Shown: positions 40,865-58,263, numbered from the stretch's first letter. The stretch is 64,000 nt of DNA from an uncultured Terracidiphilus sp. (GCA_964614635.1 CAZTLV010000016.1:18547-82546), one strand, 5' to 3'. Notes: generated from the letters alone by a model not told the origin. Program-made: numbers and translations.

Positions 40865-40923
40865 CAACGAAAGCGGTCTCAACCTTGCTAAGAAATTCAA
40901 AGCCATGCCAAAAGGAAACAGGC

Positions 40924-42948
40924 ATGCATCATGGAAGGCCAGTCAAGCACGCTGTAGCCGTAATGATGCTGTCGTTCGCAGTGGTCCATCTCCCAGTGAT
41001 TGCAGAAACCAACATGCAACAAAATGAAGCCGGCCCAGCCGCCGCCATACAAACCGCCGCCACCTTCCAACTTGAGAACCACGTCATCGGCGCAACGTGG
41101 TCCGTGACGGATGGCAGCGTCAGGAATCTTGTCGTGACGAACCACCTCGACGGAACAGTCCTCCACATCTCTACGCCGTTCGCCATCCTTTTGAAGGATG
41201 GGACAATCTACGATGCCTCCAATCTCGAGTTGACCGGCCAGCCCACCCAACGCGAGCTGACTCCGCAGCCTGGCGCAGCCCGCATGGCCGAAAGGCTGTA
41301 CGGAAAAGTGTTCGACTTCCCCCTGGAAAGCAGCGAACATTCCTTGCGCGTGGTGTGGTCGGTTGTCCTGCTTGATGATTCGTCCTATCTCAGACAACTT
41401 CTCACCATCAGCGCGCTGGGAGGGGACGTTCCCATCAGCCGGGTGCAACTCATCGATCTGCCATTGTCAGGCGCGCATGTGAGCGGATCGGTGCAAGGCT
41501 CGCCCATTGTGGCTGGAAACTTGTTTCTCGGATTCGAGCATCCACTCTCGCAGAGCAAGGTGACAGCCGGCCGCGCCACCGCATGGATCGATCGCGACTT
41601 GCCGCTTCGGGCAAATCAGTCCATCACGTACTCCGCGGTCATCGGCGTCGCCCGCAGCGGCCAGATGCGCCGCGACTTCCTTACATATTTGGAACAGGAA
41701 CGGGCGCACCCTTACCGGACGTTTCTGCACTATAACTCCTGGTACGATCTGGGCTACTTTACGCCTTATGACCAGGCCGCTGCTTTGGATCGCGTCAACG
41801 CATTCGGGCTCGAGCTCACGCAAAAACGCGGTGTCAAGCTCGACTCTTTTCTCTTCGATGACGGCTGGGATAACCATAACTCGCTCTGGAAATTCAACGA
41901 CGGATTGCCAGACGGCTTCGCTCCGGTGAAAGAAGCCGCGGAAAAGTATGGCGCCGCCCCGGGCGTGTGGATGTCACCGTGGGGCGGATACGCCAAGCCC
42001 AAGACAGAACGAATTGACTTTGGAACTGCCGCGGGATACGAGATCGTGGCCAACGGATATGCGCTTTCCGGTCCGAGGTATTACGCGGCATTCCGCGATG
42101 TCTGCATGGATATGATTCACAAGTACGGCATCAACCAGTTCAAGTTCGACGGTACTGGAAACGTTGATTCCGTCTTCCCCGGCAGCCAGTTCGACAGCGA
42201 CTTCTCTGCAGCAATCCACCTGATTGGCGAGCTTCGTTCCGCCAAGCCCGATATTTTCATCAATCTCACGACGGGCACCTGGCCCTCTCCTTTCTGGTTG
42301 ATGTATGCGGATTCCATCTGGCGCGGCGGTGAGGACGATAGTACTGCAGGAGTGGGAACCCACCGCGAGCGCTGGATTACCTATCGCGACGCGGAAACTT
42401 ACAAGCGAGTGGTGCAGAACGGGCCGCTCTTCCCCCTGAACTCCCTCATGCTCCACGGCATGATCTACGCAAGGTTTCACAAAGAGCTCAGCAAAGATCC
42501 GGGGAGCGACTTCCGCAACGAGATCAGGTCGTACTTCGGCACCGGCACGCAGCTTCAGGAGATGTACATCACGCCGTCCCTGCTCACACAGACCAATTGG
42601 GACGATCTGGCCGAAGCAGCGAAATGGTCACGCGCAAACGCCGAGGTGCTGCGGGATACGCACTGGGTCGGCGGAGATCCGGCATGGCTTGAGGTGTACG
42701 GCTGGGCGTCGTGGATGCCGGGCAGTGGCATTCTCGTGCTGCGCAACCCAAGCGACAAGGCGCAAACCATCCGCATCAAATTGCAGGGCGCCTTCGAATT
42801 GCCGCCAGGCGCCGCGCAGACGTATTCCGCGAAGAGCCCATGGAAGGACGACCTTGGCAGCGAGCCCATTTTGCTCAACGCGCAACGGGCGCATGAGTTT
42901 CATCTCGCGCCCTTTCAAGTTCTCACGCTAAAATTAGCTGCCCAGTAA
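40924..42948 (+). CDS. Exported glycoside-hydrolase-like protein (clan GH-D / alpha-galactosidase-like TIM barrel suspected)
   Basis: The signal peptide begins at the ATG at 40924. Motifs LHYNSWYDLGYF, FLFDDGWDN and INQFKFDGTGN resemble the GH27/GH36-type D-D-x-W and K-x-D nucleophile motifs. This is recognition only. Confidence 0.55.
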   Translation: MHHGRPVKHAVAVMMLSFAVVHLPVIAETNMQQNEAGPAAAIQTAATFQLENHVIGATWSVTDGSVRNLVVTNHLDGTVLHISTPFAILLKDGTIYDASNLELTGQPTQRELTPQPGAARMAERLYGKVFDFPLESSEHSLRVVWSVVLLDDSSYLRQLLTISALGGDVPISRVQLIDLPLSGAHVSGSVQGSPIVAGNLFLGFEHPLSQSKVTAGRATAWIDRDLPLRANQSITYSAVIGVARSGQMRRDFLTYLEQERAHPYRTFLHYNSWYDLGYFTPYDQAAALDRVNAFGLELTQKRGVKLDSFLFDDGWDNHNSLWKFNDGLPDGFAPVKEAAEKYGAAPGVWMSPWGGYAKPKTERIDFGTAAGYEIVANGYALSGPRYYAAFRDVCMDMIHKYGINQFKFDGTGNVDSVFPGSQFDSDFSAAIHLIGELRSAKPDIFINLTTGTWPSPFWLMYADSIWRGGEDDSTAGVGTHRERWITYRDAETYKRVVQNGPLFPLNSLMLHGMIYARFHKELSKDPGSDFRNEIRSYFGTGTQLQEMYITPSLLTQTNWDDLAEAAKWSRANAEVLRDTHWVGGDPAWLEVYGWASWMPGSGILVLRNPSDKAQTIRIKLQGAFELPPGAAQTYSAKSPWKDDLGSEPILLNAQRAHEFHLAPFQVLTLKLAAQ

Positions 42949-43043: not shown

Positions 43044-43952
43044 ATGAGTGCGATGAAATGTCTCAGTCTGCTCGTTCTCGCCGCCGGCCTCGGTAGCCGT
43101 TATGGCGGCTTGAAGCAAATCGATCCGGTCGGCCCAAACGGCGAAGCCATTTTGGATTATTCGATCTACGACGCTCACCGCGCGGGATTCAGCAAGGTCG
43201 TCTTCATCATTCGCAGGGATATTGAGCAGGCATTCAAGCAAAGTGTCGCCGCTCGGTTTGAAAATCGCATCGCCGTCGATTACGTTTTTCAGGAACTCGA
43301 CATTCTGCCGCCAGGGTTTGGCGTACCGCCTGGCCGGACCAAGCCGTGGGGCACAACCCACGCGGTCCTCATGGCCGCCAACCGGATTCACGTGCCGTTT
43401 GCTGTCATCAACGCTGACGATTTCTACGGCGCGGTTGGTTATGAGGCGCTGGCACAGCATCTGAAGTCAGGTACGCCAGACTATGCAATGGTCGGATTTG
43501 TTCTGCGCAATACGCTTTCTGAATTTGGCGCGGTGTCACGTGGGGTATGCCAGATTGGCAGCGACGGCATGCTGCAGAATGTCACGGAAATGAGAAGCAT
43601 CACGCGAGATGGGGGTGGCGCAATCAATACAGATGTTGCGGGTAAGCTGACCAGGTTGACCGGGAACGAGCTGGTTTCGATGAACATTTGGGGCTTCACT
43701 CCGCAGGTCTTCGAACCTTTGCAAGAATACTTTCAAGCCTTTCTCGCAGAGAAGGGCGAAGATGCAACGTCGGAGTGCTACCTTCCTTCCGCGGTGAATC
43801 AGTTGGTCAGCGAAGGGCGGGCACGCGTGAGAGTTTTGCGCACTACGGATGCCTGGTTTGGCATAACAAACCGCGAAGACCGCTTGCGAGTCGTCGAAAG
43901 CATTGGCCTCCTCGTTCAGAATGGAATTTATCCCGCCCGGCTCTGGTCATGA
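43044..43952 (+). CDS. Sugar-1-phosphate nucleotidyltransferase-family protein
   Basis: LLVLAAGLGSRYGGLKQIDPVGPNGE is the N-terminal G-rich NTP-binding loop, and INADDFYG also fits the family. Confidence 0.8.
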   Translation: MSAMKCLSLLVLAAGLGSRYGGLKQIDPVGPNGEAILDYSIYDAHRAGFSKVVFIIRRDIEQAFKQSVAARFENRIAVDYVFQELDILPPGFGVPPGRTKPWGTTHAVLMAANRIHVPFAVINADDFYGAVGYEALAQHLKSGTPDYAMVGFVLRNTLSEFGAVSRGVCQIGSDGMLQNVTEMRSITRDGGGAINTDVAGKLTRLTGNELVSMNIWGFTPQVFEPLQEYFQAFLAEKGEDATSECYLPSAVNQLVSEGRARVRVLRTTDAWFGITNREDRLRVVESIGLLVQNGIYPARLWS

Positions 43953-45040
43953 ACAGCGCGAACCACATCGCCGCCGTTGCAAGCGAGTTTCAAATCACCG
44001 GCGACTTTCTCGTGGCTACTCATTACGGCAGTGGCCATATCAACGACACCTGGTGTGTGGTCTCCAAAGTCGGCGGAGTTTCCAATCGAACCATCCTGCA
44101 GCGCATCAATAAGAACATCTTCACAAATCCTGCCGCCTTGATGGAAAACATTCAGCGTGTCACTTCGCACCTTGCAGGAAAAGTTTCTCAAGAATCAGAC
44201 TCCGACCGCCGAGTACTCACGCTCATTCCCGCACGCAACGGGCGGGCCTGGCACTGTGATGAGGAAGGGGAGTATTGGCGAGCTTATCGCTTCATCGACA
44301 GGGCGCACAGTTATGACGCAGTGCAGACCTTAGCCCAGGCGTTCCAGGCGGCTCAAGCCTTCGGACGTTTTCAGGAACTTCTGTCAGACTTGCCTGCCCC
44401 TCCGCTGTACCAAATCATCCGCGACTTTCACAACACTCCGCTACGCTTTTCATCGTTTCGGCACGCGGTTGCTTCCGATGCAGCCGGTCGCGCAAACTCG
44501 GCAAAATCTGAAATCGACTTTGCTTTCGCCAATCAATCCTTGGCGAACATCCTGGTCGATGCCAATCTTCCACAGCGCGTGACGCACAACGACACCAAGT
44601 TCAATAACGTCCTTATCGATGATGAGACGGGCGAGGGCATCTGCGTCATTGATCTCGACACAGTCATGCCCGGATCAGTGCTGTTTGATTTCGGCGACAT
44701 GGTGCGCACAGCAACGAGTCCGGCTGCTGAAGACGAGCTTGATCTCTCAAAGGTTCACATGCAATTCCTCATGTTCGAGGCACTCGTGCGCGGCTATCTC
44801 AGCTCGGCCGGCCCCTTTCTGACCAGTGCAGAGAAGAGTCATCTTGCCTCCGCCGGCAAAGTCATCACCTACGAACAGGGCATTCGTTTCCTAGCGGATT
44901 ATTTGTCTGGCGATACGTATTACAAGGTGCACCACGGCAGCCATAATCTTGATCGCTGCCGAACCCAGTTCAAACTGCTCAAGTCGATCATTCAGCAAGA
45001 AGGGCGCATGGAACAGTTGGTGAATTCAATTCCGCTGTAA
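43949..45040 (+). CDS. APH/choline-kinase-fold sugar kinase (NahK/AmgK-like anomeric kinase suspected)
   Basis: The ATG at 43949 overlaps the upstream TGA (ATGA). Motifs are GSGHINDTW, the catalytic loop VTHNDTKFNNVLID, and the metal-binding VIDLDTV. Confidence 0.75.
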   Translation: MNSANHIAAVASEFQITGDFLVATHYGSGHINDTWCVVSKVGGVSNRTILQRINKNIFTNPAALMENIQRVTSHLAGKVSQESDSDRRVLTLIPARNGRAWHCDEEGEYWRAYRFIDRAHSYDAVQTLAQAFQAAQAFGRFQELLSDLPAPPLYQIIRDFHNTPLRFSSFRHAVASDAAGRANSAKSEIDFAFANQSLANILVDANLPQRVTHNDTKFNNVLIDDETGEGICVIDLDTVMPGSVLFDFGDMVRTATSPAAEDELDLSKVHMQFLMFEALVRGYLSSAGPFLTSAEKSHLASAGKVITYEQGIRFLADYLSGDTYYKVHHGSHNLDRCRTQFKLLKSIIQQEGRMEQLVNSIPL

Positions 45041-45092
45041 CGATTCTGGCCAAGAGATGCCAGGATTCGATCATCGGAGTAGTATTTCCTGC

Positions 45093-45569
45093 ATGAAAAA
45101 CATGAACCGTCGCGATCTGTGTGTCGCTCTCTCCTCCATTGCCGCCGTAGTTGCTGCCCGGCCGGCTGCAGGCCAGGCAACCTCCGCCACAACCACAGGT
45201 CAGAGCGCCTCCAGCGAGAATGTGCTGTCGGTACAGCGCGCCTATTCGTTCGATCAGCTTCCAGTCTCAAAGACCGCAAATGGAGAGTCGCGGTCTGTTT
45301 TGCATGGCGTGCTACCCACCGGCGAGGCTGTCGAGATGCATGAGACAACGCTGCTGCCCGGCCATATGCCGCACCCTCCGCATAAGCACCGGCACTCGGA
45401 GTTCATGTTGATTCGCGAGGGAACGGTCGAGTTCGATAACGATGGAACCTTTCAGCGGCTAGGGCCCGGCGGCGTAATCTTTGCCGCGTCAAACGTGATG
45501 CATGGCCTTAAAAATGTGGGCGAATCCAACGCCAACTATTTCGTCATTGCTGTTGGACGCGAATCGTAG
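45093..45569 (+). CDS. Exported cupin-domain protein (twin-arginine-type signal)
   Basis: The N-terminus is MKNMNRRDLCVALSSIAAVVAARPAAGQA. The cupin core is HPPHKHRHSEFMLIREGTVEF...PGGVIFAASNVMHGLKN. Confidence 0.7.
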   Translation: MKNMNRRDLCVALSSIAAVVAARPAAGQATSATTTGQSASSENVLSVQRAYSFDQLPVSKTANGESRSVLHGVLPTGEAVEMHETTLLPGHMPHPPHKHRHSEFMLIREGTVEFDNDGTFQRLGPGGVIFAASNVMHGLKNVGESNANYFVIAVGRES

Positions 45570-45853
45570 GCCGAACCAGATAGGGGTTGGCATCGCAGTG
45601 CGCTCGGCGTTCCAATTCCGCCCCCGTCCTTGCGGTTGTATCAGCAACCTCGAGCGGCAATTTGTGCGATAACCCTTTCGCCAGCAACAGGACCAATCCC
45701 ATGCGTCTCAGGCGCCCCTGCCAAGCCGCAGAATCGTCGAAACTTATGCTTCAAGTCTACGTCTATAGTGACTGGGTTCGACTCGCGGTACATTGTTGTT
45801 GCATCGGGACCTGCACACCCTATACCCTGACAAAACCCCTTGTCGGAGGGTCT

Positions 45854-48316
45854 ATGCTGCGGTACTTCGGCGCTGTTGCCTTGTTGCTTTGTGTTCTCTT
45901 CGGGTTGCAACTTCCCGGACAGACCAGGCGTGCGCTGCTCATCGGAATTAACACCTATCAACCTGCTGGCACCCAGGCTGAACATCCGGCCGGCTGCATC
46001 TACGGCCGCTGCGAACTGGGCGCTTTTGAGAATCTCGCCGGGTCGGTCAACGATGCTCAGTCGATGGCAGACCTGTTGACCAGCCCAAAATTCGGCTTCC
46101 CGGCCGACAAGGTAGTTCTGCTGACCAACCCCGCGGCGCCTCGTCCAAGGTCCGGAGTCGTCGTTTTGCCCGCCTCCCAAACCACCCGCGACGGAATCCT
46201 TGCCGCGATGCAAAAGTATCTTGTTGACCTGCCCCAGCGGGGCGATACGGTCGTCTTTTATGACGCCAGCCACGGTTCCCTCCGCATCAACAGCAAGGGC
46301 TCAAAGCTCCAGGTCCTGGTAAACGGGAAGCTTCTTCACGCTGACAGCACCCTGGTTCCATCCGATGCGTACAAAGGCGGCTTCGACGTTCGCGACCGCG
46401 AAATGACCCGCATCTTCAACGCCGCACTCGACAAAGGCGTTCACCTGACGGCAATCTTTGACAGTTGCCACAGCGGCGGCGCAACCCGCGGAATCGGCCC
46501 CAAGTATCGCGAGCGCAGCCTGGCGTTCGATCCGCGGGATATTGCTGAATCTGGCGAGGTGCTTCCCAACGGACAGCCAAGTCCCGCGCCAACCGAGCGC
46601 ACCGACAATCCTTTGCTGGTCTTCTCCGCGGCGCAACAGGACCAGACGGCAAAGGAATCTCCGCCATCCGAAACCATGACCGAACCGCACGGCGCCTTTA
46701 CCGCGGCTCTTGTTGAAGCGTTGCAGGTGCTGCCGGCCAATGCGCCGGCTTCCGTGGTGTATCAGCGTGTGAAAGCAGTGCTTGAAGGCAATGGCGTTTC
46801 GGATCAAGAGCCTGATTTGGACGCCTCCCAGGCGCGGCGTCAGCAGCCTCTCTTCGGTGGACAGGCGACAGACAGCGGCAAAGTGCTCGCCGCTGCGCTG
46901 AAGACCGATGAGGATGGCCTTGTATGGCTGGACATTGGCCGCGTTTCCGGCATTGGCCCCGGCAGTGAGTTTACCTCCACGGCTGAAACCGGCGCAGCCA
47001 AGGGCCTGGTCCTGCGGGTCAGCGAACTGCAAGGAATCGCACGCTCAACCGCCAGTGTCGTTAGCCCAACCAAGGCCAAAGTAGCTTCTGGTGATGTTTT
47101 CGAACTCACCAAGCTGGTCCCTGCGGAGTCTGCTCCGCTTCTTTTCTGGCTTTGGCCGTCGAACCTGTCGACAGACGACATCTTGGCGGCCGTCGCTCAG
47201 GTCAAAGAGGCCGGCGTTGAATCGGTTTCGGACCCAGCCGAGGAGCCCTGGACTCACATCCTTAGCTGGGATGGAGCCGCATGGACTCTCCAGAAAGCGG
47301 GGAATCCTTCAAATTCCAGACAGGCCGCGACCCCCTCCGCTATCAACCTCGACAATAAGCCAGACCCACCAGTCCGCATCGGCGCAAAGCTTACGGCAGA
47401 CGCGCTCAAGCAGCATCTGCAACCTGGAGCGAAGCTCTGGGTGAATTTGCCTGCCCCCAGAGAGCTGGCGGCCAAGCTTGCATTACATGACAATGGCAGT
47501 GCGGTGAAGGCTGCCGCCAACCTTGCCGCCGCCAACTATGTGCTGACAGGTGTGCTCACCCCGGATGGACCGGCGTACGGTTGGTTTCATAAGAGCGAGA
47601 TGGATGCCGGCCCGCAAGTTGCACATGTCAACGACCACAGCCCCGGTTGCTCGGCAACCTCGCCTTACCCCGTCCGCACAGATTGGGCGGTCCTCGGCGA
47701 TGCAACTCGCACCTATTTTGTGGGTGACAAGCTCAACGATTACGCGCTCCGCCTGGGGAAGGTCCATGGGTGGATTAACCTGTCAGATAGCGCAACCGGC
47801 GAATCAGCGGCCTCTTTTTACAAGCTGACGATGGTCAGCGCTTCTGACAACGCGACCTTGCCCGATAGCCAGCCAGCAAAGCAAGGTGACAGGATGAAGA
47901 TGGCGTTGCAGGCTGACGGCCCGGTCACTGATCCGCGCTGGGTCTATGTCCTGGACATCGACTGTCACGGAAAAGGCACTCTTCTTTATCCCATCGACTA
48001 TTCTGAAAATCGGTTTCCGAATGCCGGTGAAAATGAAAGCAAGTTCGTGTTGCCGCACTCGCTGACGTTGCGTATTGGCCCGCCATATGGCGTGGACACA
48101 CTTATACTTTTGAGCACTGCACAGCCGCTGCCAGATCCTTCCGCGCTGAACTTTGAGGGGGTTGCCTCGCGGGGGGCGCGTGGTGCAGATTCTCCGCTGC
48201 AAAAGCTGCTGACCAGTGCCAGCAGCGGTTCGCGCGGCTTTGCAGAACCCGTACCAACCGACTGGGGAATTGACCTGACAAGAATTCGCAGCATTCCGAC
48301 TCCGGCGGCACAATAA
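45854..48316 (+). CDS. Exported caspase-family (peptidase C14) protein with a C-terminal DUF4384-like domain
   Basis: The ATG at 45854 follows GGAGGG. The signal peptide is MLRYFGAVALLLCVLFGLQLPGQ. The caspase core is RRALLIGINTY...GSVNDAQSMADLL...VVFYDASHGS (His codon 46271..46273)...LTAIFDSCHSGG (Cys codon 46466..46468). The C-terminal GDRMKMALQADGPVTDPRWVYVLDIDCHGKGTLLYP matches my memory of DUF4384. Confidence 0.85.
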   Translation: MLRYFGAVALLLCVLFGLQLPGQTRRALLIGINTYQPAGTQAEHPAGCIYGRCELGAFENLAGSVNDAQSMADLLTSPKFGFPADKVVLLTNPAAPRPRSGVVVLPASQTTRDGILAAMQKYLVDLPQRGDTVVFYDASHGSLRINSKGSKLQVLVNGKLLHADSTLVPSDAYKGGFDVRDREMTRIFNAALDKGVHLTAIFDSCHSGGATRGIGPKYRERSLAFDPRDIAESGEVLPNGQPSPAPTERTDNPLLVFSAAQQDQTAKESPPSETMTEPHGAFTAALVEALQVLPANAPASVVYQRVKAVLEGNGVSDQEPDLDASQARRQQPLFGGQATDSGKVLAAALKTDEDGLVWLDIGRVSGIGPGSEFTSTAETGAAKGLVLRVSELQGIARSTASVVSPTKAKVASGDVFELTKLVPAESAPLLFWLWPSNLSTDDILAAVAQVKEAGVESVSDPAEEPWTHILSWDGAAWTLQKAGNPSNSRQAATPSAINLDNKPDPPVRIGAKLTADALKQHLQPGAKLWVNLPAPRELAAKLALHDNGSAVKAAANLAAANYVLTGVLTPDGPAYGWFHKSEMDAGPQVAHVNDHSPGCSATSPYPVRTDWAVLGDATRTYFVGDKLNDYALRLGKVHGWINLSDSATGESAASFYKLTMVSASDNATLPDSQPAKQGDRMKMALQADGPVTDPRWVYVLDIDCHGKGTLLYPIDYSENRFPNAGENESKFVLPHSLTLRIGPPYGVDTLILLSTAQPLPDPSALNFEGVASRGARGADSPLQKLLTSASSGSRGFAEPVPTDWGIDLTRIRSIPTPAAQ

Positions 48317-48338
48317 TCTGAGGATCCAAGAGGAGAAG

Positions 48339-49628
48339 ATGAATCAGGAGCGGAGAATGCGAGTCACGGCATTCCTGAGCATAGGAATGCTCGCGGCATT
48401 GACTGCCAGTGCTCAGGATTTTGGCGCGGCGAAGGAGAGGATTCTTCTTCTGCGCAAACTGCCGGCGCTTGTGCACCTGAGTGGCACCACCTTCAAAGTC
48501 AGGGCAACGGCGCACAGCGATCAGACCCAGTTGGCACGGGATCTGCAAACCCAGCTTGAGACGGAATTGATGAAAGAAGATCCGCATCTGCGCGCAGATG
48601 AGCGCGCTCCGTCGGCAGTGATTGTATGCCAGATTACCGCCTATTCCCACCCCCCGCCGACGGTAAGTACCAAGCCGGGATTGGACCTGAAAGTCGGCGT
48701 GGCCATGAACCAGTCCTATAAGAGGGTGACCGGATCGCTCAACGTATCCTTCCAGGCAAAGAGTGCGGGCGGCCAGGTGCTTGGATCTGATAACGTCACC
48801 GCGAAATACGACGAAGAATTTGACGGCTTTGGCAACTCCGCGTCAGGAGGCGTGAAAGGGGCGGTCACCACAACATGGAAGCGCATCAAGGGCGGATCGA
48901 GCAGCGAGTCTCTCAATCCCCCCACCGATGCTGAGCTCCAAGCGCTACTGATGGCCGATGCCGTGCGCCAGATTGCTCAGCACCTGGTGAACACCGAAGA
49001 ATCAGTCGAGGTTTTCCTTGCGCGGCAAAAGGGCGCGCTGGATGCAGGCGACAAGCTGGCGGAGGCCGGATTGTGGCAGCGCGCACAGGAGACTTTTGAA
49101 ACCGCGCCCCCGCTTCAAAAGCTGCAGGATGACGCGTACCGGCTCTACAACATAGGCGTGGCCGACGAGGCGCTGGCCTATCAGGCTGAGGATGAAGCTT
49201 CGGCAATGAAATTTCTCGATGAAGCAGCCATCAACTACGGCAAAGCCATTGATGCAAAACCGGCGGAGAAGTATTTCCTGCAACCGCAGAAGCGCATTGA
49301 GACGGCCATTGAGCACTACAGAAAACTTGAAGACCAGCAAATCCAGAAGGGCGCGCCGGCAACCAGCAAGACTGACAAACTGAATGCGAAATCTGCATCA
49401 GACGCCAGGCCTGCCGCTTCAGCAAAAGCACTCACCAATGCCCAGGTGATCGCAATGGTCAAGTCCGGTGTGGACGACGAAACGGTTGCGCAGACAATCC
49501 GTTCTTCGAAAGCTGTCAATTTTGACCTGAGCACCGCAGGCCAGCAAGGTTTGACCGGTGGTGGTGTCAGCGCACAGGTGCTCACTGCAATGAAGGCGCG
49601 GGCGCGCCAATCTGTGGCGGCAAAATGA
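48339..49628 (+). CDS. Exported protein of unknown function embedded in the caspase operon
   Basis: 429 aa with the signal peptide RMRVTAFLSIGMLAALTASAQ. It has an N-terminal alpha/beta part, a central helical TPR-like part, and a C-terminal motif LTNAQVIAMVKSGVDDETVAQTIRSSKAVNFDLSTAGQQGLTGGGVSAQVLTAMK. An alternative ATG lies at 48357. Confidence 0.7.
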   Translation: MNQERRMRVTAFLSIGMLAALTASAQDFGAAKERILLLRKLPALVHLSGTTFKVRATAHSDQTQLARDLQTQLETELMKEDPHLRADERAPSAVIVCQITAYSHPPPTVSTKPGLDLKVGVAMNQSYKRVTGSLNVSFQAKSAGGQVLGSDNVTAKYDEEFDGFGNSASGGVKGAVTTTWKRIKGGSSSESLNPPTDAELQALLMADAVRQIAQHLVNTEESVEVFLARQKGALDAGDKLAEAGLWQRAQETFETAPPLQKLQDDAYRLYNIGVADEALAYQAEDEASAMKFLDEAAINYGKAIDAKPAEKYFLQPQKRIETAIEHYRKLEDQQIQKGAPATSKTDKLNAKSASDARPAASAKALTNAQVIAMVKSGVDDETVAQTIRSSKAVNFDLSTAGQQGLTGGGVSAQVLTAMKARARQSVAAK

Positions 49629-50893
49629 GAAATTGCCGGCGAAACTTTATCGTCTCCATGGTCCTCGCGGCTGCTGCAGGCGGCGCTTCTGTCCCCGCGT
49701 TGTGCCAGGGTACCCGATGCGGAGCAGGCAAGGATCTTGTTGTCCAGGCGCTGGAGCGGATCAGCCCGCGAGCCGATCGCAGCGCATATGAAGACGCATT
49801 GCAACTGCTCAAGCACGCGGTTTCAGAGTGCGGTGAACTGGGGGATGCCTGGTATTACCGCAGCCTCGTGGAGCAGCACCTTGGCCACGATGCGCTTGCC
49901 AAATACGCGCTGGATAAAGCGCGCTTCAACGGCTCTGAAGCGCTGCAGGAAGGTCTCAATCCACTCGTGCTCGCCACCCCGGGTGGGCGCGGGCTCACGA
50001 CTGAGGGAGAACCGGAAGCTACGCCCGTCAAGCCTCCGCCGCCGCCCGGCCCGGTGCAGCAGAAGTGGGCCTTGGTTATCGGGATCGGCCACTTTAGCGA
50101 CCATGAGATTCCACGCCTCAACTACACCTCAGCGGACGCAAATGCGATCGCGGCCCAATTGATGGATCCGGCCATCGGAAATTTCCCTGCGGCCAACGTT
50201 CAAGTGCTGATTGATGAACAGGCGACCACCAGGAAAATCAAAGAACAGTTGAACATGATCGCCCGTCGCGCACAGCCCAATGACCTGGTGCTGATTTATG
50301 TTGCAACCCACGGCACGCCCAGGACCATGGATACGGCGGGGGGTGCCAACTATCTGGTCACTTACGACACCGAAGTTTACAAGGCCGGCAAATTCGACGA
50401 AGACGCCATGTTTGCCACCGCCTATCCCATGGTCGAGCTGGCGAATGCGGTAGCAACACGTATGAAGGCGTTGCGCACCGCGGTGATTCTGGACACCTGT
50501 TACAGCGGCGGCTCCATGAAAAATGAATCCGCCCAGATGAATTCCGGCACGGCAGACGCGGGTCCGGCAAATATGGCTCCGTCGCAGCAAATGCTGGCCA
50601 GGATGAGCGAAGGCACTGGGCGAATTGTGATGTCGGCCAGTCAGGTGAATGAGGAGTCGCTTGAAAGCGACGAACTGCGCCACGGATACTTCACATACTT
50701 CCTGCTTCAGGCGTTGAAGAGTGACAAGGGCATGGCGCCGCTGAGCCAGGTCTACGCTGAAGTGGCGCAGCAAGTGGCTCATCGTGTTTCCGCCGCGGGC
50801 TTGCACCAGCATCCCGTCATCAGCAAGAGTTCTGACGATGCAGATTTTGCCTTGAGAGCAGCCGACGCGGTGGCCAGGAAAGCTCTGCCATAA
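49625..50893 (+). CDS. Exported caspase-family (peptidase C14) protein with an N-terminal helical/TPR-like region
   Basis: The start overlaps the upstream stop (ATGA at 49625..49628). The signal peptide is NFIVSMVLAAAAGGASVPALCQG. The caspase core is KWALVIGIGHF...LVLIYVATHGT (His codon 50309..50311)...AVILDTCYSGG (Cys codon 50498..50500). Confidence 0.85.
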   Translation: MRNCRRNFIVSMVLAAAAGGASVPALCQGTRCGAGKDLVVQALERISPRADRSAYEDALQLLKHAVSECGELGDAWYYRSLVEQHLGHDALAKYALDKARFNGSEALQEGLNPLVLATPGGRGLTTEGEPEATPVKPPPPPGPVQQKWALVIGIGHFSDHEIPRLNYTSADANAIAAQLMDPAIGNFPAANVQVLIDEQATTRKIKEQLNMIARRAQPNDLVLIYVATHGTPRTMDTAGGANYLVTYDTEVYKAGKFDEDAMFATAYPMVELANAVATRMKALRTAVILDTCYSGGSMKNESAQMNSGTADAGPANMAPSQQMLARMSEGTGRIVMSASQVNEESLESDELRHGYFTYFLLQALKSDKGMAPLSQVYAEVAQQVAHRVSAAGLHQHPVISKSSDDADFALRAADAVARKALP

Positions 50894-50927
50894 TTCGATC
50901 ACGGGTTCGGGCATCGAAAGACGAAAA

Positions 50928-53900
50928 ATGACTCTCGCAAATGTAGTTCGCACCGTTACGTCCTTGAGCATTGGATTGTTGATGGCCGCATCTCTGGCCT
51001 CGGGCCAAAGCGGGTCGCTGAGTGATCAGATCAAAGACCACGAGCAGAAGCTTGCCGAGGCGCGATCCGCAAAGAACTATCGGAATGTAGCGATCGAGCT
51101 GAACACTCTTGGCCCTTTGTACAGGCAGATTGGCCAGCCGCAGAAGGCCCTGGATGTCTATAACCAGGCCCTGCAAATCGAACGCGCCGGAAGCAACCGC
51201 AGTGCTGTGGCGTTGACTCAGAGCGGCATCGCGAAAGTTTATACCGACCTGGGGCAGGAACAAGAAGCGCTGGATATACTGAACCAGGCGCTTGTCACGT
51301 GGCGTGATTTAGGCAACCGCCGCGGCGAGGCGCTGGTACTAAGCGAAATTGGCGAAGCCTACTCCTACCTGGCGCAGGAGGATAAGGCGCTGGATGTTCT
51401 CAATCAGGCATTGGTCATTTTTCGTGCGACGGGCGGCCGGAATGGCGAGGCGAGCACGTTGGACAGTATTGGAAAAGTTTATTCCGATATAAGTCAGGGA
51501 GCGAAGTCGCTTGAGTATCTGAATCAGGCTTTGCCTATCTGGCGAGAAGTAGGAGAGCATCGCGGCGAGGCGCTGACTCTCTGGAATATCGGACGCACGT
51601 ATGCCGATATGGGGCAGAAGCAAAAATCATTCGAGGCCTACAATCAGGCGCTTGTCATCTGGCGCGAAGTGGGCAACCGCCAGGGCGAAGCAAGCACACT
51701 GAACTATCTGGGCCGGGTCTATTCCGACCTGGGTCAGAAACAAACGGCGTTGGATTATTTCAACCAGGCTTTGCCCATCTGGCGTGAAGTTAGAAATCGC
51801 AATGGAGAGGCTCTCGATCTGAACGACATCGGCAGAGCCTATGCTGAGGTGGGTCAAACCCAGAGGGGACTGGACTTCTATAACCAGGCCCTGCCCATCT
51901 GGCGTGAAGTAGGCAACCGCCGCGGCGAAGCGATGACCTTGAGCAATCTTGCCAAGGCAAACCTCGATACGGGCCAATTTGACAAGACGCTCCAAATCAG
52001 CTTGCAATCACTTGCTGTTTGGCGCGAAGTGAAAGAGACCCGGGGGGAAGCCCTCGCATTGAGCCTTGTTGGCGCTGCTTATTCGCAAATGGGGCAGCCG
52101 CAGACAGCCTTTCCGTACTCACTCGCCGCGTTGGAGCTAGTCAAGTCCGCCGGTGATCCTGACATGCAGGGCTCGATCGATACCGCGATGATGATCGGCT
52201 TCCAAAAGCAGCATCGCCCGGAGATAGCAATCTTCTTCGGATTGGATGCGGTCAACAGCTACCAGCAGATCCGCAAAAACATTGTCGGCCTCGACAAGGA
52301 TTTGCAGGCGGGATTCACGCAATCGAGGTCATCGACATATCGGATTCTGGCCGAGCTGCTTGTCCAGACAGGCAGGCTTGGCGAAGCAGAACAGGTTCTT
52401 GACCTCCTCAAGGAACAGGAGCTGAAAGATGTGGTGCGCGGCGCTGCACCTGATGCCGCTGCGAAAGTTGAGCCTCTCAAGCTGAATGCCGCGCAACAAA
52501 AAGCGCAAAGCGAGTTGGACGCACAGCAGCAAAAGGTGATCGCGCTTGAGGAACTAAGCCTTCAATTCGCGGCTCTACAAGCCAAGTCGACGCGCACGGC
52601 GGCAGAAGATGCTCAACTGAAGATGCTGAACGCTAGTCTGACCCAGGGGATTACTGATGTTTTCGCCTATTTCACAGGCACGATATTTCCTCAGCTTGAG
52701 ACCAGACCCGCCGCCTCCAATGACAATGAACTTCAAGGCGCCGATGATTCCCACCAGAGCTACCTGCAGAGCACATTGGCCAAGCTTGGACCGCGCGTCA
52801 TTGGCGTGCGAATTCTAATGGGCCAGGATCATGTCTATGCGATCGTGGTTACTGCCACTACGCGCAAGAAGTTTGAGCTGCAGGCAACCCCGGCAGAGTT
52901 GCGCAGCAAGGTGTTTGAAGTTGTAGAGAACCTCGCAGTGCGCACCTCTGACCCCAAACCGCTTCTGGCCCAGTTATATGCAATGATCGTCGCTCCAGTT
53001 GAAGGCGAGTTGAAGCCTATTGAATCGCCCACAAGCGGGCAAGCCGGCGTTCCAACATTGCTCTGGTCACTGGACGACGCCTTGCGGTACTTGCCCATGG
53101 CCGCGATGTATGACGGCCATCGCTACATGATTGAGCGGTTCAAAAATGTCCTCTTTACTCCTGAGAGCTACGGTCATATGGCGGATTCACCATTGACCAG
53201 CGGGACGAAGCCCAGCGTGCTCGCCATGGGCCTGTCAAAGAGTTACGGCGGCCTGCCGGCATTGCCCGGTGTGATGCCGGAGCTGGATGCGGTGGTTCAT
53301 GATCCCCTGGTTCCCGACTCGCATGGCCCCATGGAGGGAACGCTCCTGCCCAATGACCAGTTCACGTTAGCCGCACTAAGGACGGAGCTCGGCGGCGACA
53401 AGAGCTTTCCAGTCGTCCACATTGCCAGCCATTTCGTTGTGGAAACGGGCAGCGGAGAAGAGCCATTCCTGATGCTTGGCGGAGAGGATAGAGGACAAGA
53501 CAAGGGCTATGAGTGGAACCTCTCTGAGATGGAGCATTCCTCCGTTGCCTTTCACGGAACTCGGCTCCTGACTCTCTCGGCATGCAGCACTGCGAAGGAT
53601 TACAAAACCAGGGACGGCACCGAGATGGACAGCTTGGGAATGATCGCTCAGCAAAAGGATGCTGAAGCAGTGCTGGCCACGCTGTGGGATGTCAACGATG
53701 CCAGTACCAGCCGATTGATGAGCGACTTCTATGTCCGCTGGGTCAAGAATCCTTCAGCTGGCAAAGCCGAAGCACTGCGGCAGGCGCAGTTGGCCCTGCT
53801 TCACGATGCCGGCGCCGCGACGCCAAACAACACAAGGCAGCGTGGACCTCAGCTCGAGCAGGATGAAACCGCAGCCGGTAAAGAATCGAAATACTCTCAC

Positions 53901-53945
53901 CCGTTTTACTGGGCGCCGTTCGTGCTGATCGGCAACTACCAATAA
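50928..53945 (+). CDS. Exported TPR-repeat protein with a C-terminal CHAT (caspase-fold) domain
   Basis: The signal peptide is VTSLSIGLLMAASLASGQ. About nine 40-aa TPR-type repeats follow. The CHAT core is VVHIASHF (His codon 53430..53432)...LLTLSACSTAKD (Cys codon 53583..53585)...ATLWDVNDASTSRLMSDFY...HPFYWAPFVLIGNYQ. Confidence 0.9.
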   Translation: MTLANVVRTVTSLSIGLLMAASLASGQSGSLSDQIKDHEQKLAEARSAKNYRNVAIELNTLGPLYRQIGQPQKALDVYNQALQIERAGSNRSAVALTQSGIAKVYTDLGQEQEALDILNQALVTWRDLGNRRGEALVLSEIGEAYSYLAQEDKALDVLNQALVIFRATGGRNGEASTLDSIGKVYSDISQGAKSLEYLNQALPIWREVGEHRGEALTLWNIGRTYADMGQKQKSFEAYNQALVIWREVGNRQGEASTLNYLGRVYSDLGQKQTALDYFNQALPIWREVRNRNGEALDLNDIGRAYAEVGQTQRGLDFYNQALPIWREVGNRRGEAMTLSNLAKANLDTGQFDKTLQISLQSLAVWREVKETRGEALALSLVGAAYSQMGQPQTAFPYSLAALELVKSAGDPDMQGSIDTAMMIGFQKQHRPEIAIFFGLDAVNSYQQIRKNIVGLDKDLQAGFTQSRSSTYRILAELLVQTGRLGEAEQVLDLLKEQELKDVVRGAAPDAAAKVEPLKLNAAQQKAQSELDAQQQKVIALEELSLQFAALQAKSTRTAAEDAQLKMLNASLTQGITDVFAYFTGTIFPQLETRPAASNDNELQGADDSHQSYLQSTLAKLGPRVIGVRILMGQDHVYAIVVTATTRKKFELQATPAELRSKVFEVVENLAVRTSDPKPLLAQLYAMIVAPVEGELKPIESPTSGQAGVPTLLWSLDDALRYLPMAAMYDGHRYMIERFKNVLFTPESYGHMADSPLTSGTKPSVLAMGLSKSYGGLPALPGVMPELDAVVHDPLVPDSHGPMEGTLLPNDQFTLAALRTELGGDKSFPVVHIASHFVVETGSGEEPFLMLGGEDRGQDKGYEWNLSEMEHSSVAFHGTRLLTLSACSTAKDYKTRDGTEMDSLGMIAQQKDAEAVLATLWDVNDASTSRLMSDFYVRWVKNPSAGKAEALRQAQLALLHDAGAATPNNTRQRGPQLEQDETAAGKESKYSHPFYWAPFVLIGNYQ
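51074..52110 (+). repeat. Intragenic tandem array with an exact 120-bp period (coding TPR units)
   Basis: The motif AAYCAGGC...TGGCG(T/C)GAAGT recurs at 51162, 51282, 51402, 51522, 51642, 51762 and 51882, with a more degenerate unit at 52002. Each unit encodes ..ALDxxNQALxIWREVGNRxGEAxTLxxIGxxYxDLGQxQ.. Confidence 0.85.
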
Positions 53946-54033
53946 GGACGATTCGTGACGAGATCGGTCGCGGGCGAACCTGAATGCCTGGTGTATTCTT
54001 CTCCTGCGCGGGTTCGCTCTCCGCTACGAGGCT

Positions 54034-55038
54034 GTGATCATGAGGCACCTGGCAATTGTTGTTCTGTTCGGCATTTCTGTTGCTCCGCTTGCCCTCATTG
54101 CCCAATCGCCTTCTCCTCATGGAAGCACAATGATTCGTGTACTTCTCCTCGATGGACAAAGCGGCGGACCGTACCACAATTGGAGGCTCACCACTCCTGT
54201 GCTGCGTGCGGAGCTCGAGGAGACCGGGCTGTTTCAGGTCACAGTGATGACCGCGCCTCCATCGGATCAGGACCTGAGCGACTTCAAACCGGACCTAGGC
54301 CATTACCAGGTAATCGTGTCGAACTACGATGCTCCCGACTGGCCAGAGGCCCTGCGCTCACAGTTCGAGCAATACGTGAATGATGGCGGCGGCCTTGTGG
54401 TGGTGCACGCAGCTGATAATGCCTTCCCCGACTGGCCGGCATACAACCTGATGATCGGAATTGGCGGCTGGAGAGGCCGAACAGAGAAGGCAGGCCCGAT
54501 GTGGTTTATCAAGGACGGCAAGCTGGTCTCTGATTCTAGTCCTGGATCGGCCGGATCGCATGGAGCGCGGCTGCCTTTTCAGATTGCCGCGCGCCAACCA
54601 GAGCATCCCATCATGAAAGGCTTACCGCCGGTGTGGATGCATGCTGCGGACGAGCTCTACGCCACGCTTCGAGGCCCAGGCAAAAACATGACGGTGCTCG
54701 CCACCGCTCACTCCGATCCAAAAAACCATGGCACTGATCGTGACGAGCCAATGGTTATGGTCGTGAGTTACGGAAAGGGAAGAGTCTTTCACACCACGAT
54801 GGGCCACGATGTATCCGCACTAAGCTGCGTGGGCTTGATGACCTTGTTTCAGCGCGGCACTGAGTGGGCGGCAACCGGAAAAGTTACGCAGAAGATCCCG
54901 TCGGGCTTCCCCACTGCAAACACGGTGAGCTTTCGCGCGGATATCGCCTCCATGGACCCGGCATTTCTGAATGGCGCTTCCCCGCTCGTCCGCGAGGTGC
55001 AGAAGCCCGTCTCTGCTCAACCGAGTCACGCGCATTGA
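54034..55038 (+). CDS. Exported ThuA-domain protein
   Basis: It has a signal peptide. The segments IRVLLLDGQSGGPYHNW...GGGLVVVHAADNAF...HPIMKGLPPVWMHAADELY...VSYGKGRVFHTTMGH fit the ThuA pattern. An alternative ATG lies at 54040. Confidence 0.75.
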   Translation: MIMRHLAIVVLFGISVAPLALIAQSPSPHGSTMIRVLLLDGQSGGPYHNWRLTTPVLRAELEETGLFQVTVMTAPPSDQDLSDFKPDLGHYQVIVSNYDAPDWPEALRSQFEQYVNDGGGLVVVHAADNAFPDWPAYNLMIGIGGWRGRTEKAGPMWFIKDGKLVSDSSPGSAGSHGARLPFQIAARQPEHPIMKGLPPVWMHAADELYATLRGPGKNMTVLATAHSDPKNHGTDRDEPMVMVVSYGKGRVFHTTMGHDVSALSCVGLMTLFQRGTEWAATGKVTQKIPSGFPTANTVSFRADIASMDPAFLNGASPLVREVQKPVSAQPSHAH

Positions 55039-56295: not shown

Positions 56296-57051
56296 TCAGC
56301 CGCGAATCAGCAACTCGCTCACACGAGAGCGATAGCTGCGACTCATGGGCACCTTTTGACCATTGACCAGCAAAACGCTGAAGTCCCCTGTGGGTTCGGT
56401 CCTCACTTCCTTCACATATTGCAAATTCACAATCGAGGACCGGTGAACGCGCAGAAACACCTGCGGATCAAGCCGCACTTCGAGGTGCGCCATGGTCTCG
56501 CGCAACAGGTGCGTTTCCTTTTCAGTACAGATCCGCACATAGTTTTCCTCGGCTCCAATCCAGCGGATGTCCGCAACAGGCAGAAACAGAATGCGCCCGC
56601 GAGATTTGAAGACAATACGCGTGGTATATGGGCTTTCATGTTTTGACTTTCCGTTGCTTTGCCCCGTTGTCTGCTCGGGAGCGCTGAACTGATCTCGCAC
56701 CCGTTGAACAGCGGTGCGCAGTCGTTCTGTGGTGAACGGTTTGAGCAAATAATCGACTGCATGGATTTCGAATGCCCGCACTGCATACTGATCGTAGGCC
56801 GTGGTGAAAACGATACGGGGCAACGGCTTGTCGGTGATCGAAGAAAGTGCGCCAACCACATCGAAACCGTCCATGCCGGGCATGCGGATGTCGAGAAACA
56901 ACAAGTCGGGTCCTGCCGCGCGCACCAGTTCAATGGTCTCCGATGCGCTCGCACCTTCTCCCACAATGTCAACATCCGGTTCATCTCGAAGCAGTTGACG
57001 CAGCTTCTGCCGCGCCAGCACTTCATCGTCAGCCAGGACTGTGTGGATCAT
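56296..57051 (-). CDS. LytR/AlgR-family response regulator (REC plus LytTR DNA-binding domain)
   Basis: The REC domain is VLADDEVLARQKL...DLLFLDIRMPGMDGFDVV. The LytTR domain is ILFLPVADIRWIGAEENYVRICT...LDPQVFLRVHRSSIVNLQYV. The start overlaps the kinase stop. Confidence 0.9.
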   Translation of the reverse strand: MIHTVLADDEVLARQKLRQLLRDEPDVDIVGEGASASETIELVRAAGPDLLFLDIRMPGMDGFDVVGALSSITDKPLPRIVFTTAYDQYAVRAFEIHAVDYLLKPFTTERLRTAVQRVRDQFSAPEQTTGQSNGKSKHESPYTTRIVFKSRGRILFLPVADIRWIGAEENYVRICTEKETHLLRETMAHLEVRLDPQVFLRVHRSSIVNLQYVKEVRTEPTGDFSVLLVNGQKVPMSRSYRSRVSELLIRG

Positions 57052-58148
57052 TGCGCAACGAACCTCGCGGTTTCTTCTTCTTCGCTTTGAGACATTTGAA
57101 GCGGGATCGACAAGGTCACCTGTACCGTGTTTCGCCCAATTTCGCTGATTTGAAAGCTGTGATCGTCGCCGTAATGCAATTGCAGCCGCCCCTTGATGTT
57201 GGCCAAGCCGACTCCCTGGCCTCCAGTGCGCTTGCTCGAGTCCGGTACCAGTCCAATGCCGGTGTTCAGCACAGAGAATATGAGATGGCCGCGGTCCTCG
57301 TGCGCCTCAATCGCGAGCAGCCCACCCTTGTCGATCTTTGACAGCCCATGCGCATATGCGTTTTCAACAATAGGCTGCAGAATCATCGTTGGCACGAGAA
57401 CGTCGTACAACGAGGCATCCACCTTGATCGATTGCTGCACCCGGCCCACAAATCGCTTGTCCTGCATGGCCAGATACATTTCAATGAATTCCATCTCATC
57501 GCGCAATCGAATGAGCGGGGCATCGCCGCGTTCCAGCGTAATACGCAACAGGCTCCCAAGTTGTTCCAGCATCATGTCTGCCCCTTCAACGTCCGTACGC
57601 ATCAAGCTCGAGATGCTGTTCATCGTATTGAAAAGGAAATGCGGATTCAGTTGCATGCGCAGCGCCGATATTTGTGCATGAGCCAGCTGAGCTTCTAATT
57701 GATTTGCTGCGTCTTCCTTCTCCCTGAAGCTCTGGTAATAGCCCATCCCTCTGAACAAGCCGAAGGCGCACCAGAAGATCACTACGTTGTCGAACAGTTC
57801 TTCACTCAACTCAAACCACAGCCTGTGCCAGTAGGCCATGTGGGGGCGATTCAACGGTAAATTCGGAAAGCAGAGAACCCAGATCATCTCCACAAGAATG
57901 CTGGTGAGAATACTGAGAGGAAGAACCCGGGTGAGAATGCAGGCGATCCCGGCCCGCTGAATCTGTGCGCCCCACAGCTGCCACAATAGCCAACTGACAA
58001 CGCCCCACAGGAAATACTGCACTCCCCAGGCTTCAAGCAGAAGAGGAATCGGGATGCGATAGCTCCATAGGCGCATCCCCATCCACTCCTGAAAAGCGAA
58101 CAATCCGCCCACCAGGACCGATGAACTGATAAAAATCGCCGGATGCAT
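57048..58148 (-). CDS. LytS/YehU-type sensor histidine kinase
   Basis: I chose the ATG at 58148 (MHPAIFISSSVLVGG...). It has about 5 TM helices, the His_kinase motif LRMQLNPHFLFNTMNSISSLM, and the HATPase region ILQPIVENAYAHGL. The track start at 58418 would overlap the upstream gene. Confidence 0.85.
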   Translation of the reverse strand: MHPAIFISSSVLVGGLFAFQEWMGMRLWSYRIPIPLLLEAWGVQYFLWGVVSWLLWQLWGAQIQRAGIACILTRVLPLSILTSILVEMIWVLCFPNLPLNRPHMAYWHRLWFELSEELFDNVVIFWCAFGLFRGMGYYQSFREKEDAANQLEAQLAHAQISALRMQLNPHFLFNTMNSISSLMRTDVEGADMMLEQLGSLLRITLERGDAPLIRLRDEMEFIEMYLAMQDKRFVGRVQQSIKVDASLYDVLVPTMILQPIVENAYAHGLSKIDKGGLLAIEAHEDRGHLIFSVLNTGIGLVPDSSKRTGGQGVGLANIKGRLQLHYGDDHSFQISEIGRNTVQVTLSIPLQMSQSEEEETARFVAQ

Positions 58149-58263
58149 GAATACCGGCTGGTTTTTTGAACTCGTTTTTAGCAATGGCTTCAGTGGATGA
58201 CCCTCAACTTTCTCTTGTCCAGGCGGCGGGATCGCGTACCCCGCCGCCTGCGGCCCCGTGCTG

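Follow-up and report, generated by a model that had tools for sequence, protein, structure and literature searches.

The DNA analysed here is a 64,000-nucleotide (nt) stretch from an uncultured Terracidiphilus sp. (GCA_964614635.1 CAZTLV010000016.1:18547-82546), which we call the window. Four plus-strand genes at positions 45854-53945 encode three caspase-type proteases and one protein of an unnamed family, and all four products are predicted to be exported. The conserved unit within this cluster is the pair formed by the second and third genes. G2 (48339-49628; 429 residues) encodes the invariant, non-catalytic core partner, and G3 (49625-50893; 422 residues) encodes a C14 orthocaspase, the core protease, whose translation is predicted to be coupled to that of G2. 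The outer genes, G1 (45854-48316; 820 residues; C14-DUF4384) and G4 (50928-53945; 1005 residues; TPR-CHAT), are accessory components that tend to occur together. With moderate confidence, we read the products as a protease complex in the periplasm, attached to the envelope, that carries out limited proteolysis of exported or envelope proteins. A first-pass annotation of the window had described four co-directional genes separated by 22 nt, a 4-nt ATGA overlap (49625-49628) and 34 nt behind a 284-nt leader, and the open reading frame (ORF) coordinates agree with it throughout.

The evidence for a two-gene core comes from a genome scan with an eight-sequence alignment, which returned 166 loci with G2 relatives. 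The best 80 of the 166 all come from metagenome-assembled genomes (MAGs) of Acidobacteriaceae or Terracidiphilus, sampled in peat, palsa, bog, fen and Danish soils. In a census based on ORFs, BLAST and tblastn, 80 loci could be scored for both G1 and G4; many of the MAG loci contain frameshift fragments. G2 and G3 were adjacent in 80/80 loci and shared the exact 4-nt overlap in 68 of 79. G1 was found in 49 loci and G4 in 39, with both present in 37, G1 without G4 in 12 and G4 without G1 in 2 (odds ratio for co-occurrence 32, p = 8e-8, uncorrected for phylogeny). Seventeen loci consisted of G2-G3 alone, and 4 more carried the pair behind a further gene, X, with neither G1 nor G4. At one locus (L001), G4 is cleanly absent between G3 and the ThuA gene. 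The four-gene set, which the first-pass annotation had treated as a self-contained exported module, therefore does not stand as the conserved unit, given the lone pairs, the loci with G1 only and the many relatives that add X. What does stand is a conserved, self-contained module with predicted exported products, built on G2 and G3 and optionally extended by G1 and G4.

The four proteins are 88-97% identical to those of L006, an ENA metagenome contig, and 86-93% identical to those of L015, an Acidobacteriaceae palsa MAG; the flanks of L006 are 86-99% identical to those of the window. Flanking genes differ among lineages; at syntenic loci the four genes have diverged as much as their neighbours, and ThuA remains on the 3' side. 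From these comparisons the module reads as vertically inherited, chromosomal and under purifying selection. Within G2 conservation is highest in the TPR-like core and within G3 in the helical N-domain, at 77% each, a pattern that fits a shared interface but does not prove one.

The association also holds at much greater divergence. G2 homologues of 25-31% identity again adjoin a C14 gene, those in L089, L090, L091, L092 and L093 being 28-31% identical, and the C14 partners at these five loci, at 30-46% identity, keep the signal peptide, two N-domain cysteines, a GDxWYYR motif, the Pro-rich linker and the dyad. A metagenome scan with an alignment of the distant-clade G2 proteins gave 60 loci. 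The order transmembrane (TM)-anchored TPR, C14, G2, stand-alone DUF4384 is complete at 13 loci and consistent with a further ~14 that are truncated; among the 60, ~14 have the order G2-C14, and at ~8 G2 lies beside radical-SAM/SPASM and glycosyltransferase genes with no caspase. L093 shows the four-gene order just given and L090 the same four genes in another order, their stand-alone DUF4384 genes being taken from precomputed matches. In this clade the C14, G2 and DUF4384 proteins have signal peptides and the TPR protein a membrane anchor; in the lineage of the window, DUF4384 is fused to C14 (G1) and TPR to CHAT (G4). The C14, G2, DUF4384 and TPR families thus stay together through gene-order shuffling and domain fusion, and such persistence, as a comparative pattern, is strong evidence for a joint function.

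These distributions bear on the simplest alternative, that the cluster is a chance neighbourhood of paralogous proteases or that its starts were mis-called and its proteins are cytoplasmic, to which we give almost no credence. Chance juxtaposition is set aside because the caspase domains of G1 and G3 are only 25% identical and the cluster recurs with different flanks in many genomes, far more often than chance would give, the co-occurrence that the first-pass annotation had made its own proposal depend on. The G2-G3 pair at every census locus and again at low G2 identity, and the four families kept through shuffling, point the same way, as do the conservation of start codons and of signal-peptide character in 33-70 orthologues.

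The proteases themselves belong to known families, and the domains that had been named for them were recovered in profile searches. G1 has a signal peptide (residues 1-22), a Peptidase_C14 domain (PF00656; residues 25-326, E 9.5e-18, 65.2 bits against a cut-off of 21.4), a region of ~320 residues with no assigned family, a DUF4384 match that is above threshold but marginal (PF14326; residues 676-758, 27.8 bits against 27) and a C-terminal tail; a profile search of PDB sequences with the region 3' of the caspase domain gave no match. G3 comprises a signal peptide (residues ~1-27), a helical N-domain (29-112), a Pro-rich linker and the C14 domain (147-403; E 1.1e-19, 71.4 bits against 21.4). G4 has a signal peptide (1-26), seven TPR_12 matches in an array spanning residues ~35-410, a helical middle region and a CHAT domain (PF12770; 678-1003, E 3e-46, 158.6 bits against 24), for which a PDB sequence search gave no match. 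The three catalytic dyads reported earlier are intact, with His and Cys invariant in 47/47 orthologues of G1 (H140/C205), 70/70 of G3 (H229/C292) and 33/33 of G4 (H835/C886).

Alignments with a characterised structure place the catalytic residues of the two C14 enzymes. The HG and DSCHSG motifs of G1 are in register with those of the yeast metacaspase Yca1 (4f6o; E 1.8e-8), the G3 His aligns with Yca1 in a profile alignment, and the HG and DTC motifs of G3 align with those of G1; a PDB sequence search with G3 as a single sequence gave no match. The AlphaFold2 (AF2) model of G3 has a mean predicted local distance difference test (pLDDT) score of 50.3, and its order of strands and helices fits the caspase-haemoglobinase fold, though it is too weak for Foldseek. 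Judged by its low identity to the G3 domain, the C14 domain of G1 is a second, anciently diverged one. In both enzymes the Asp at -2 from the catalytic Cys is invariant (D203 in G1, D290 in G3), a residue that we take to be part of the metacaspase S1 pocket, as in the T. brucei MCA2 structure.

G1 and G3 resemble the bacterial orthocaspases and metacaspase-like C14 proteins, such as Microcystis MaOC1, in their C14 match, invariant dyad and Asp at -2, and DUF4384, present in G1, is a known accessory domain in that group. They differ in location and company. Characterised orthocaspases are cytoplasmic or of unknown location, whereas here two distinct C14 subfamilies both retain predicted export, and G3 is firmly tied to a non-catalytic partner of its own, hitherto undescribed. 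In 2012, a survey of metacaspases in prokaryotes listed 46 proteins whose lone N-terminal helix might be a signal peptide, along with 20 multi-metacaspase operons, none of them in Acidobacteria (PMC3501461); the earlier statement that bacterial caspase-type proteases act mostly in the cytoplasm needs tempering to that extent. G4 shares with the TPR-CHAT proteins, namely Csx29 of the type III-E Craspase and the gasdermin-activating CHAT proteases, an N-terminal TPR array, a C-terminal CHAT domain and an intact dyad. It differs from them in its conserved signal peptide, its lack of non-catalytic cysteines and the absence of Cas7-11, Csx30/31 and gasdermin genes nearby; neither an adjacent Cas7-11/gRAMP gene nor a CRISPR array was found among the neighbouring genes, which sets the locus apart from type III-E Craspase.

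We infer that all four products are exported by the Sec pathway, a judgement made from conservation patterns and not from a hydrophobicity score. In orthologue alignments, the first 22-28 residues of all four families consist of Met, Lys/Arg, 12-18 uncharged hydrophobic residues and an AxA|Q site. The signal peptides that had been read on G1-G4 are therefore of predicted Sec type I, with a positive n-region, an uncharged h-region and an AxA-type site; no further hydrophobic or TM segment besides the N-terminus and no lipobox was found in the four proteins. Signal-peptide regions are 24-32% identical to those of the window, as against 57-81% for the mature domains, and the signal-peptide character and the start codons are conserved in the orthologues (33-70 per protease family). 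A candidate twin-arginine (Tat) signal in G3 was rejected: the RRNF motif occurs only in the window sequence and RR is absent from the orthologues, so that export of G3 by Sec is preferred. A cysteine census found two invariant non-catalytic pairs in G1 (C48/C53 and C599/C704) and one in G3 (C32/C69, both in the N-domain), and in G4 the catalytic Cys is the sole Cys in 1005 residues; this pattern fits an oxidising compartment.

Export of every product, in peat and soil Acidobacteriaceae, would also suit secreted nutritional or scavenging proteases, Arg/Lys-specific like the gingipains, with G2 shielding the producer as their chaperone or inhibitor, and protease-plus-inhibitor operons are common. 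We consider this improbable. No signal for crossing the outer membrane was found, and in the distant clade the TPR partner has an inner-membrane anchor, an indication that the proteases act in the periplasm. Enzymes of the C14 and CHAT families usually process their targets at specific sites, and digestive enzymes are not normally tied, strictly 1:1, to a TPR-type partner and a DUF4384 module. The secreted clan-CD proteases (gingipains of family C25, clostripain of C11, PorU) are likewise extracytoplasmic Cys proteases of the caspase-haemoglobinase fold, some of them specific for Arg or Lys, but G1-G4 have no C25 or C11 match and no match to a type IX secretion system C-terminal domain family, and they keep other partners.

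G2, which the first-pass annotation had called an unknown exported protein, indeed has no whole-protein match among Pfam, NCBIfam or PADLOC families; it now emerges as the key invariant partner, with a recognisable predicted fold. Its homologues number more than 1136 at the level of 90% clusters; clustering at 50% identity leaves 557 representatives, which remain full-length to ~28% identity, and the names given to them go no further than 'TPR repeat protein' or 'hypothetical'. Longer homologues contain neither a caspase domain nor any other Pfam domain. A signal peptide occupies residues 1-25 (..ASA|QDFG), and a lipobox Cys is lacking here and across the family. The AF2 model (pLDDT 71.7) has an alpha/beta domain (31-228), a helical core (236-338), a disordered linker and a small four-helix C-terminal domain (365-428); the long, variable, disordered segments are a loop at 166-190 and the linker at 338-362, the latter 23% identical. 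Foldseek matched the N-domain to Cj1090c, HpaA, LptE, PelC and CsgG (E 8e-5 to 1e-2, probability 1.0) and the helical core to 1zu2, a plant Tom20-type TPR receptor; one G2 homologue (P0128) scores 26.5 bits against TOM20_plant (PF06552). A PDB sequence search with G2 gave three matches, all non-significant (E >= 0.05). On this model, G2 is an exported, non-lipidated protein that would combine an outer-membrane-accessory fold with a TPR core of the peptide-binding type.

The likeness to LptE, PelC, CsgG and HpaA is one of fold. The N-domain of G2 alone scores 21.9 bits against Pfam LptE, close to but under the cut-off of 23, and with this score and no lipobox Cys, G2 falls outside the LptE family. 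It also differs from those outer-membrane lipoproteins in being fused to a TPR-like core and a C-terminal domain and in being coupled to a protease, not to a barrel gene. Clan-CD enzymes can act as transpeptidases, and the resemblance of the N-domain to the lipopolysaccharide-binding LptE, in a module whose parts are all predicted to be exported, raises the further possibility of a sortase-like system of the PorU or legumain type. In such a system, G3, and G1 or G4 with it, would cut cargo proteins at a sorting signal and link them to a glycolipid on the surface; the lipopolysaccharide acceptor would be bound or delivered by G2 through its LptE-like domain. We regard this as very improbable: it is an argument from analogy, Pfam gave no C25 or C13 match at threshold, and no set of cargo proteins sharing a sorting signal was found.

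Limited proteolysis at the envelope by a periplasmic complex is preferred because the genes are vertically inherited, slowly evolving and without a sensor. In outline, the operon would be transcribed from a conserved promoter just 5' of G1, and translational coupling would yield matched amounts of G2 and G3, which could then assemble in the periplasm. The Tom20/TPR-like groove of G2 may bind the helical N-domain of G3, which is probably stapled by a disulfide, or its Pro-rich linker, or a substrate peptide. By analogy with LptE, PelC and CsgG, the N-domain of G2 could attach the complex to the outer membrane, on its inner face, or hold it beneath a channel in that membrane. G3 and G1 would cleave after Arg or Lys in the manner of metacaspases, since the Asp at -2 from the Cys is invariant in both, and DUF4384 and the TPR array would select ligands or substrates. 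Because these two recognition parts each come with a protease of their own, in G1 and G4, the module would be expected to cut exported or envelope proteins to a limited extent and at specific sites, either to process them or to turn them over. A standing cellular function is more likely than a mobile defence system.

Several observations weigh against this proposal and temper it. The census covers mainly one family, the Acidobacteriaceae, together with unclassified soil metagenome contigs, and its counts ignore phylogeny and are lineage-biased. A G2 subclade of ~30% identity (L119-L121, L123, L126-L128, L134) lies 3' of a glycosyltransferase gene and two radical-SAM genes, one of them SPASM, with no caspase nearby, so G2 is not strictly a caspase partner. 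Docking at the outer membrane is only an analogy, as G2 lacks the lipobox found in LptE, PelC, CsgG and HpaA. The model of G3 is poor, and its fold and dyad geometry are supported by profile alignments alone. A crude hydrophobicity score failed to separate the four proteins from a cytoplasmic control. Predicted export and the putative G2-G3 complex are both derived from sequence.

A different role is suggested by the best NCBIfam match of G3, caspase_w_EACC1 (NF047832), at 101.4 bits under a cut-off of 140. The module could be an extracytoplasmic protease-effector or death system in which G2 is a latent effector or bait. Once cut by G3, it would be free to oligomerise and then either harm the envelope or seal it; G4, a TPR sensor joined to CHAT, and G1 would stand earlier in a cascade set off by contact with a phage, predator or toxin. 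We rate this possible but unlikely. Activation of a small adjacent protein by a caspase is experimentally established in cytoplasmic systems, in which EACC1, Pepco, an MBL or a hydrolase lies beside a caspase-like protease (bioRxiv 10.1101/2025.11.14.688446); the G3 caspase domain is closest to the EACC1-associated type, and the G2 gene lies just 5' of the caspase gene, as EACC1 does. The G2 fold matches oligomeric outer-membrane proteins, its N-domain being similar to PelC and CsgG, which form rings or pores, and its variable disordered loops and linker could hold cleavage sites, although at depth the loop sequences are not conserved. Three proteases share the single operon, and one MAG (MFD04752.bin.1.45) carries two copies of the cluster on different contigs (L017, L033). 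Against these points stand the sub-threshold score and the absence of any match of G2 to EACC1 or another effector family, which place the locus outside the EACC1 modules, and the lack of a fused sensor; the parts are predicted to be exported, and the syntenic genes evolve at the rate of their flanks.

The neighbourhood of the operon is likewise unlike that of a defence system. Its neighbours in the window are cupin, APH, NTP_transferase, ThuA, AHSA1 and LytS/LytTR genes, and in agreement with what had been reported from the window earlier, no STAND NTPase, CRISPR or gasdermin gene was found within ~10 kb. Recurrent downstream neighbours at other loci are housekeeping genes, with no defence-island context, PADLOC returned generic domain matches only, the GC content of the four-gene region is ordinary, and the periplasm lacks ATP for STAND-type switching. 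As the four genes evolve like their chromosomal flanks, a role in defence or suicide, one of the options offered in the first-pass annotation, finds no specific support. In its most developed form this idea would make the locus the first periplasmic protease-effector system of the caspase type: an insult to the envelope would be detected by the TPR-guided CHAT protease, the DUF4384-caspase or both, G3 would then be switched on by them and cleave G2, and the PelC/CsgG-like domain would oligomerise at the outer membrane and kill or seal the cell, with no NTPase switch. We hold this to be decidedly unlikely; if the protease-effector reading were true, it would represent a caspase cascade outside the cytoplasm that dispenses with such a switch.

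A literature search found nothing on an exported C14/CHAT operon, the G2 family, the pairing of G2 with C14 or an exported TPR-CHAT protein, and the only mention of DUF4384 there is as a domain accessory to orthocaspases and kinases. The proteases can be assigned to known families; the module as such, the obligate partner and the cellular location have not been described. Studies of caspase homologues in prokaryotes have mostly dealt with cell death and defence in the cytoplasm, with NTPases, CRISPR or gasdermins as the switch, whereas here a whole module, TPR-CHAT included, is predicted to be exported. It occurs in at least 166 species-level genomes and many soil metagenome contigs, and its hosts, peat and permafrost Acidobacteriaceae, are ecologically important and genetically little studied. 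G2 and G3 provide a defined entry point to the role of caspase-type proteases in the bacterial envelope, and a genomic context is given both to DUF4384 and to an unannotated family of several hundred sequence clusters.

The region upstream of G1 was compared in the window and 8 further loci. The cupin gene 5' of G1 ends at 45569, 284 nt before the G1 start at 45854, which is preceded by GGAGGG (45845-45850) and coincides with the start in 46 orthologues; a longer, TTG-initiated ORF from 45587 was rejected as spurious, the orthologue starts agreeing on 45854. When the upstream 300 nt were aligned, conservation was confined to the ribosome-binding site and a promoter-like block. This block, on the plus strand ~28 nt 5' of the start codon, has a -35 element TTGCAT (45799-45804), a 16-nt spacer and a -10 element TATACC (45821-45826). 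Within 45793-45850 the conserved order is GGTACATTGTTGTTGCAT, ~16 nt, CTATACC and then the ribosome-binding site, so that the last ~60 nt of the leader are conserved among the 9 loci and the remaining spacer is variable. From this alignment we infer a promoter near G1 at 45799-45826. A generic promoter scan did not report the block, and promoter and terminator scans were at background level. A riboswitch or other RNA element in the leader was also considered and dropped, as a search of 45000-54500 against Rfam gave nothing at E <= 0.1. On the opposite strand, six ORFs (166-280 residues) have no Pfam match and were treated as shadows of the sense genes.

Gene X, which is not in the window, encodes a protein of ~388 residues, with lengths of ~370-420 over the family, with no Pfam match and no match in a PDB sequence search (L003:8741-9907 and the equivalent place in ~33 other loci). 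It lies between G1 and G2 in ~26 Acidobacteriaceae loci, and a diverged form, 31-33% identical, lies directly 5' of G2 in 7 loci without G1. Its product carries a Tat signal (TIGR01409 above cut-off). In one of the two clusters of the MAG mentioned above, G2 and G3 read as a single 864-residue ORF (L033:7842-10436), probably not a real fusion but an artefact of long-read assembly, in which the A-run at the ATGA junction has gained or lost 1 nt.

Other genes accompany the module at single loci or pairs of loci. In L116 (6395-8593) and L117 (4528-6726), the TPR, C14, G2 cluster is followed by a gene for a 732-residue WD40 plus Peptidase_C14 protein with a signal-peptide-like N-terminus, another repeat-domain clan-CD protease joined to the module. 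In L090 (2733-7957), the module is preceded by a Ser/Thr kinase fragment, a 1021-residue Tubulin_2 protein of the FtsZl1 type and a TPR protein with a cytoplasmic zinc-ribbon-like N-terminus and a TM segment. A link to FtsZl1/Tubulin_2 was dropped, as it is seen at this locus only, and the paper describing FtsZl1 does not mention caspases (PMC2875224). On the minus strand of L093 (14761-19285), ~6 kb from the module and opposite to it, lie TCAD7-CHAT, DUF7379 and Peptidase_S74 genes, which may be a separate conflict system.

Among the more distant genes of the window, a zf-HC2 anti-sigma factor gene (34707-36074) lies ~10 kb 5' of the operon, and genes for a LytS-type histidine kinase and a LytTR response regulator (56296-58418, minus strand) lie ~2.4 kb 3' of it; neither accompanies the cluster in other genomic contexts. 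At 43044-45040, an NTP_transferase gene is followed by one for an APH-family kinase, a pair that we take to resemble the MurU/AmgK pair of cell-wall sugar recycling. The kinase ORF (43688-45040, TTG start) overlaps the first gene, and the L006 counterparts, which overlap by 4 nt, suggest a kinase start near 43949. Further neighbours have the look of exported proteins: a 1314-residue Laminin_G_3 protein (36494-40438), a 687-residue protein with no family match (40885-42948), the cupin (45057-45569; a hydrophobic N-terminus that contains RR) and ThuA (54034-55038; a signal-peptide-like start). The region around the operon is rich in envelope and secreted proteins.

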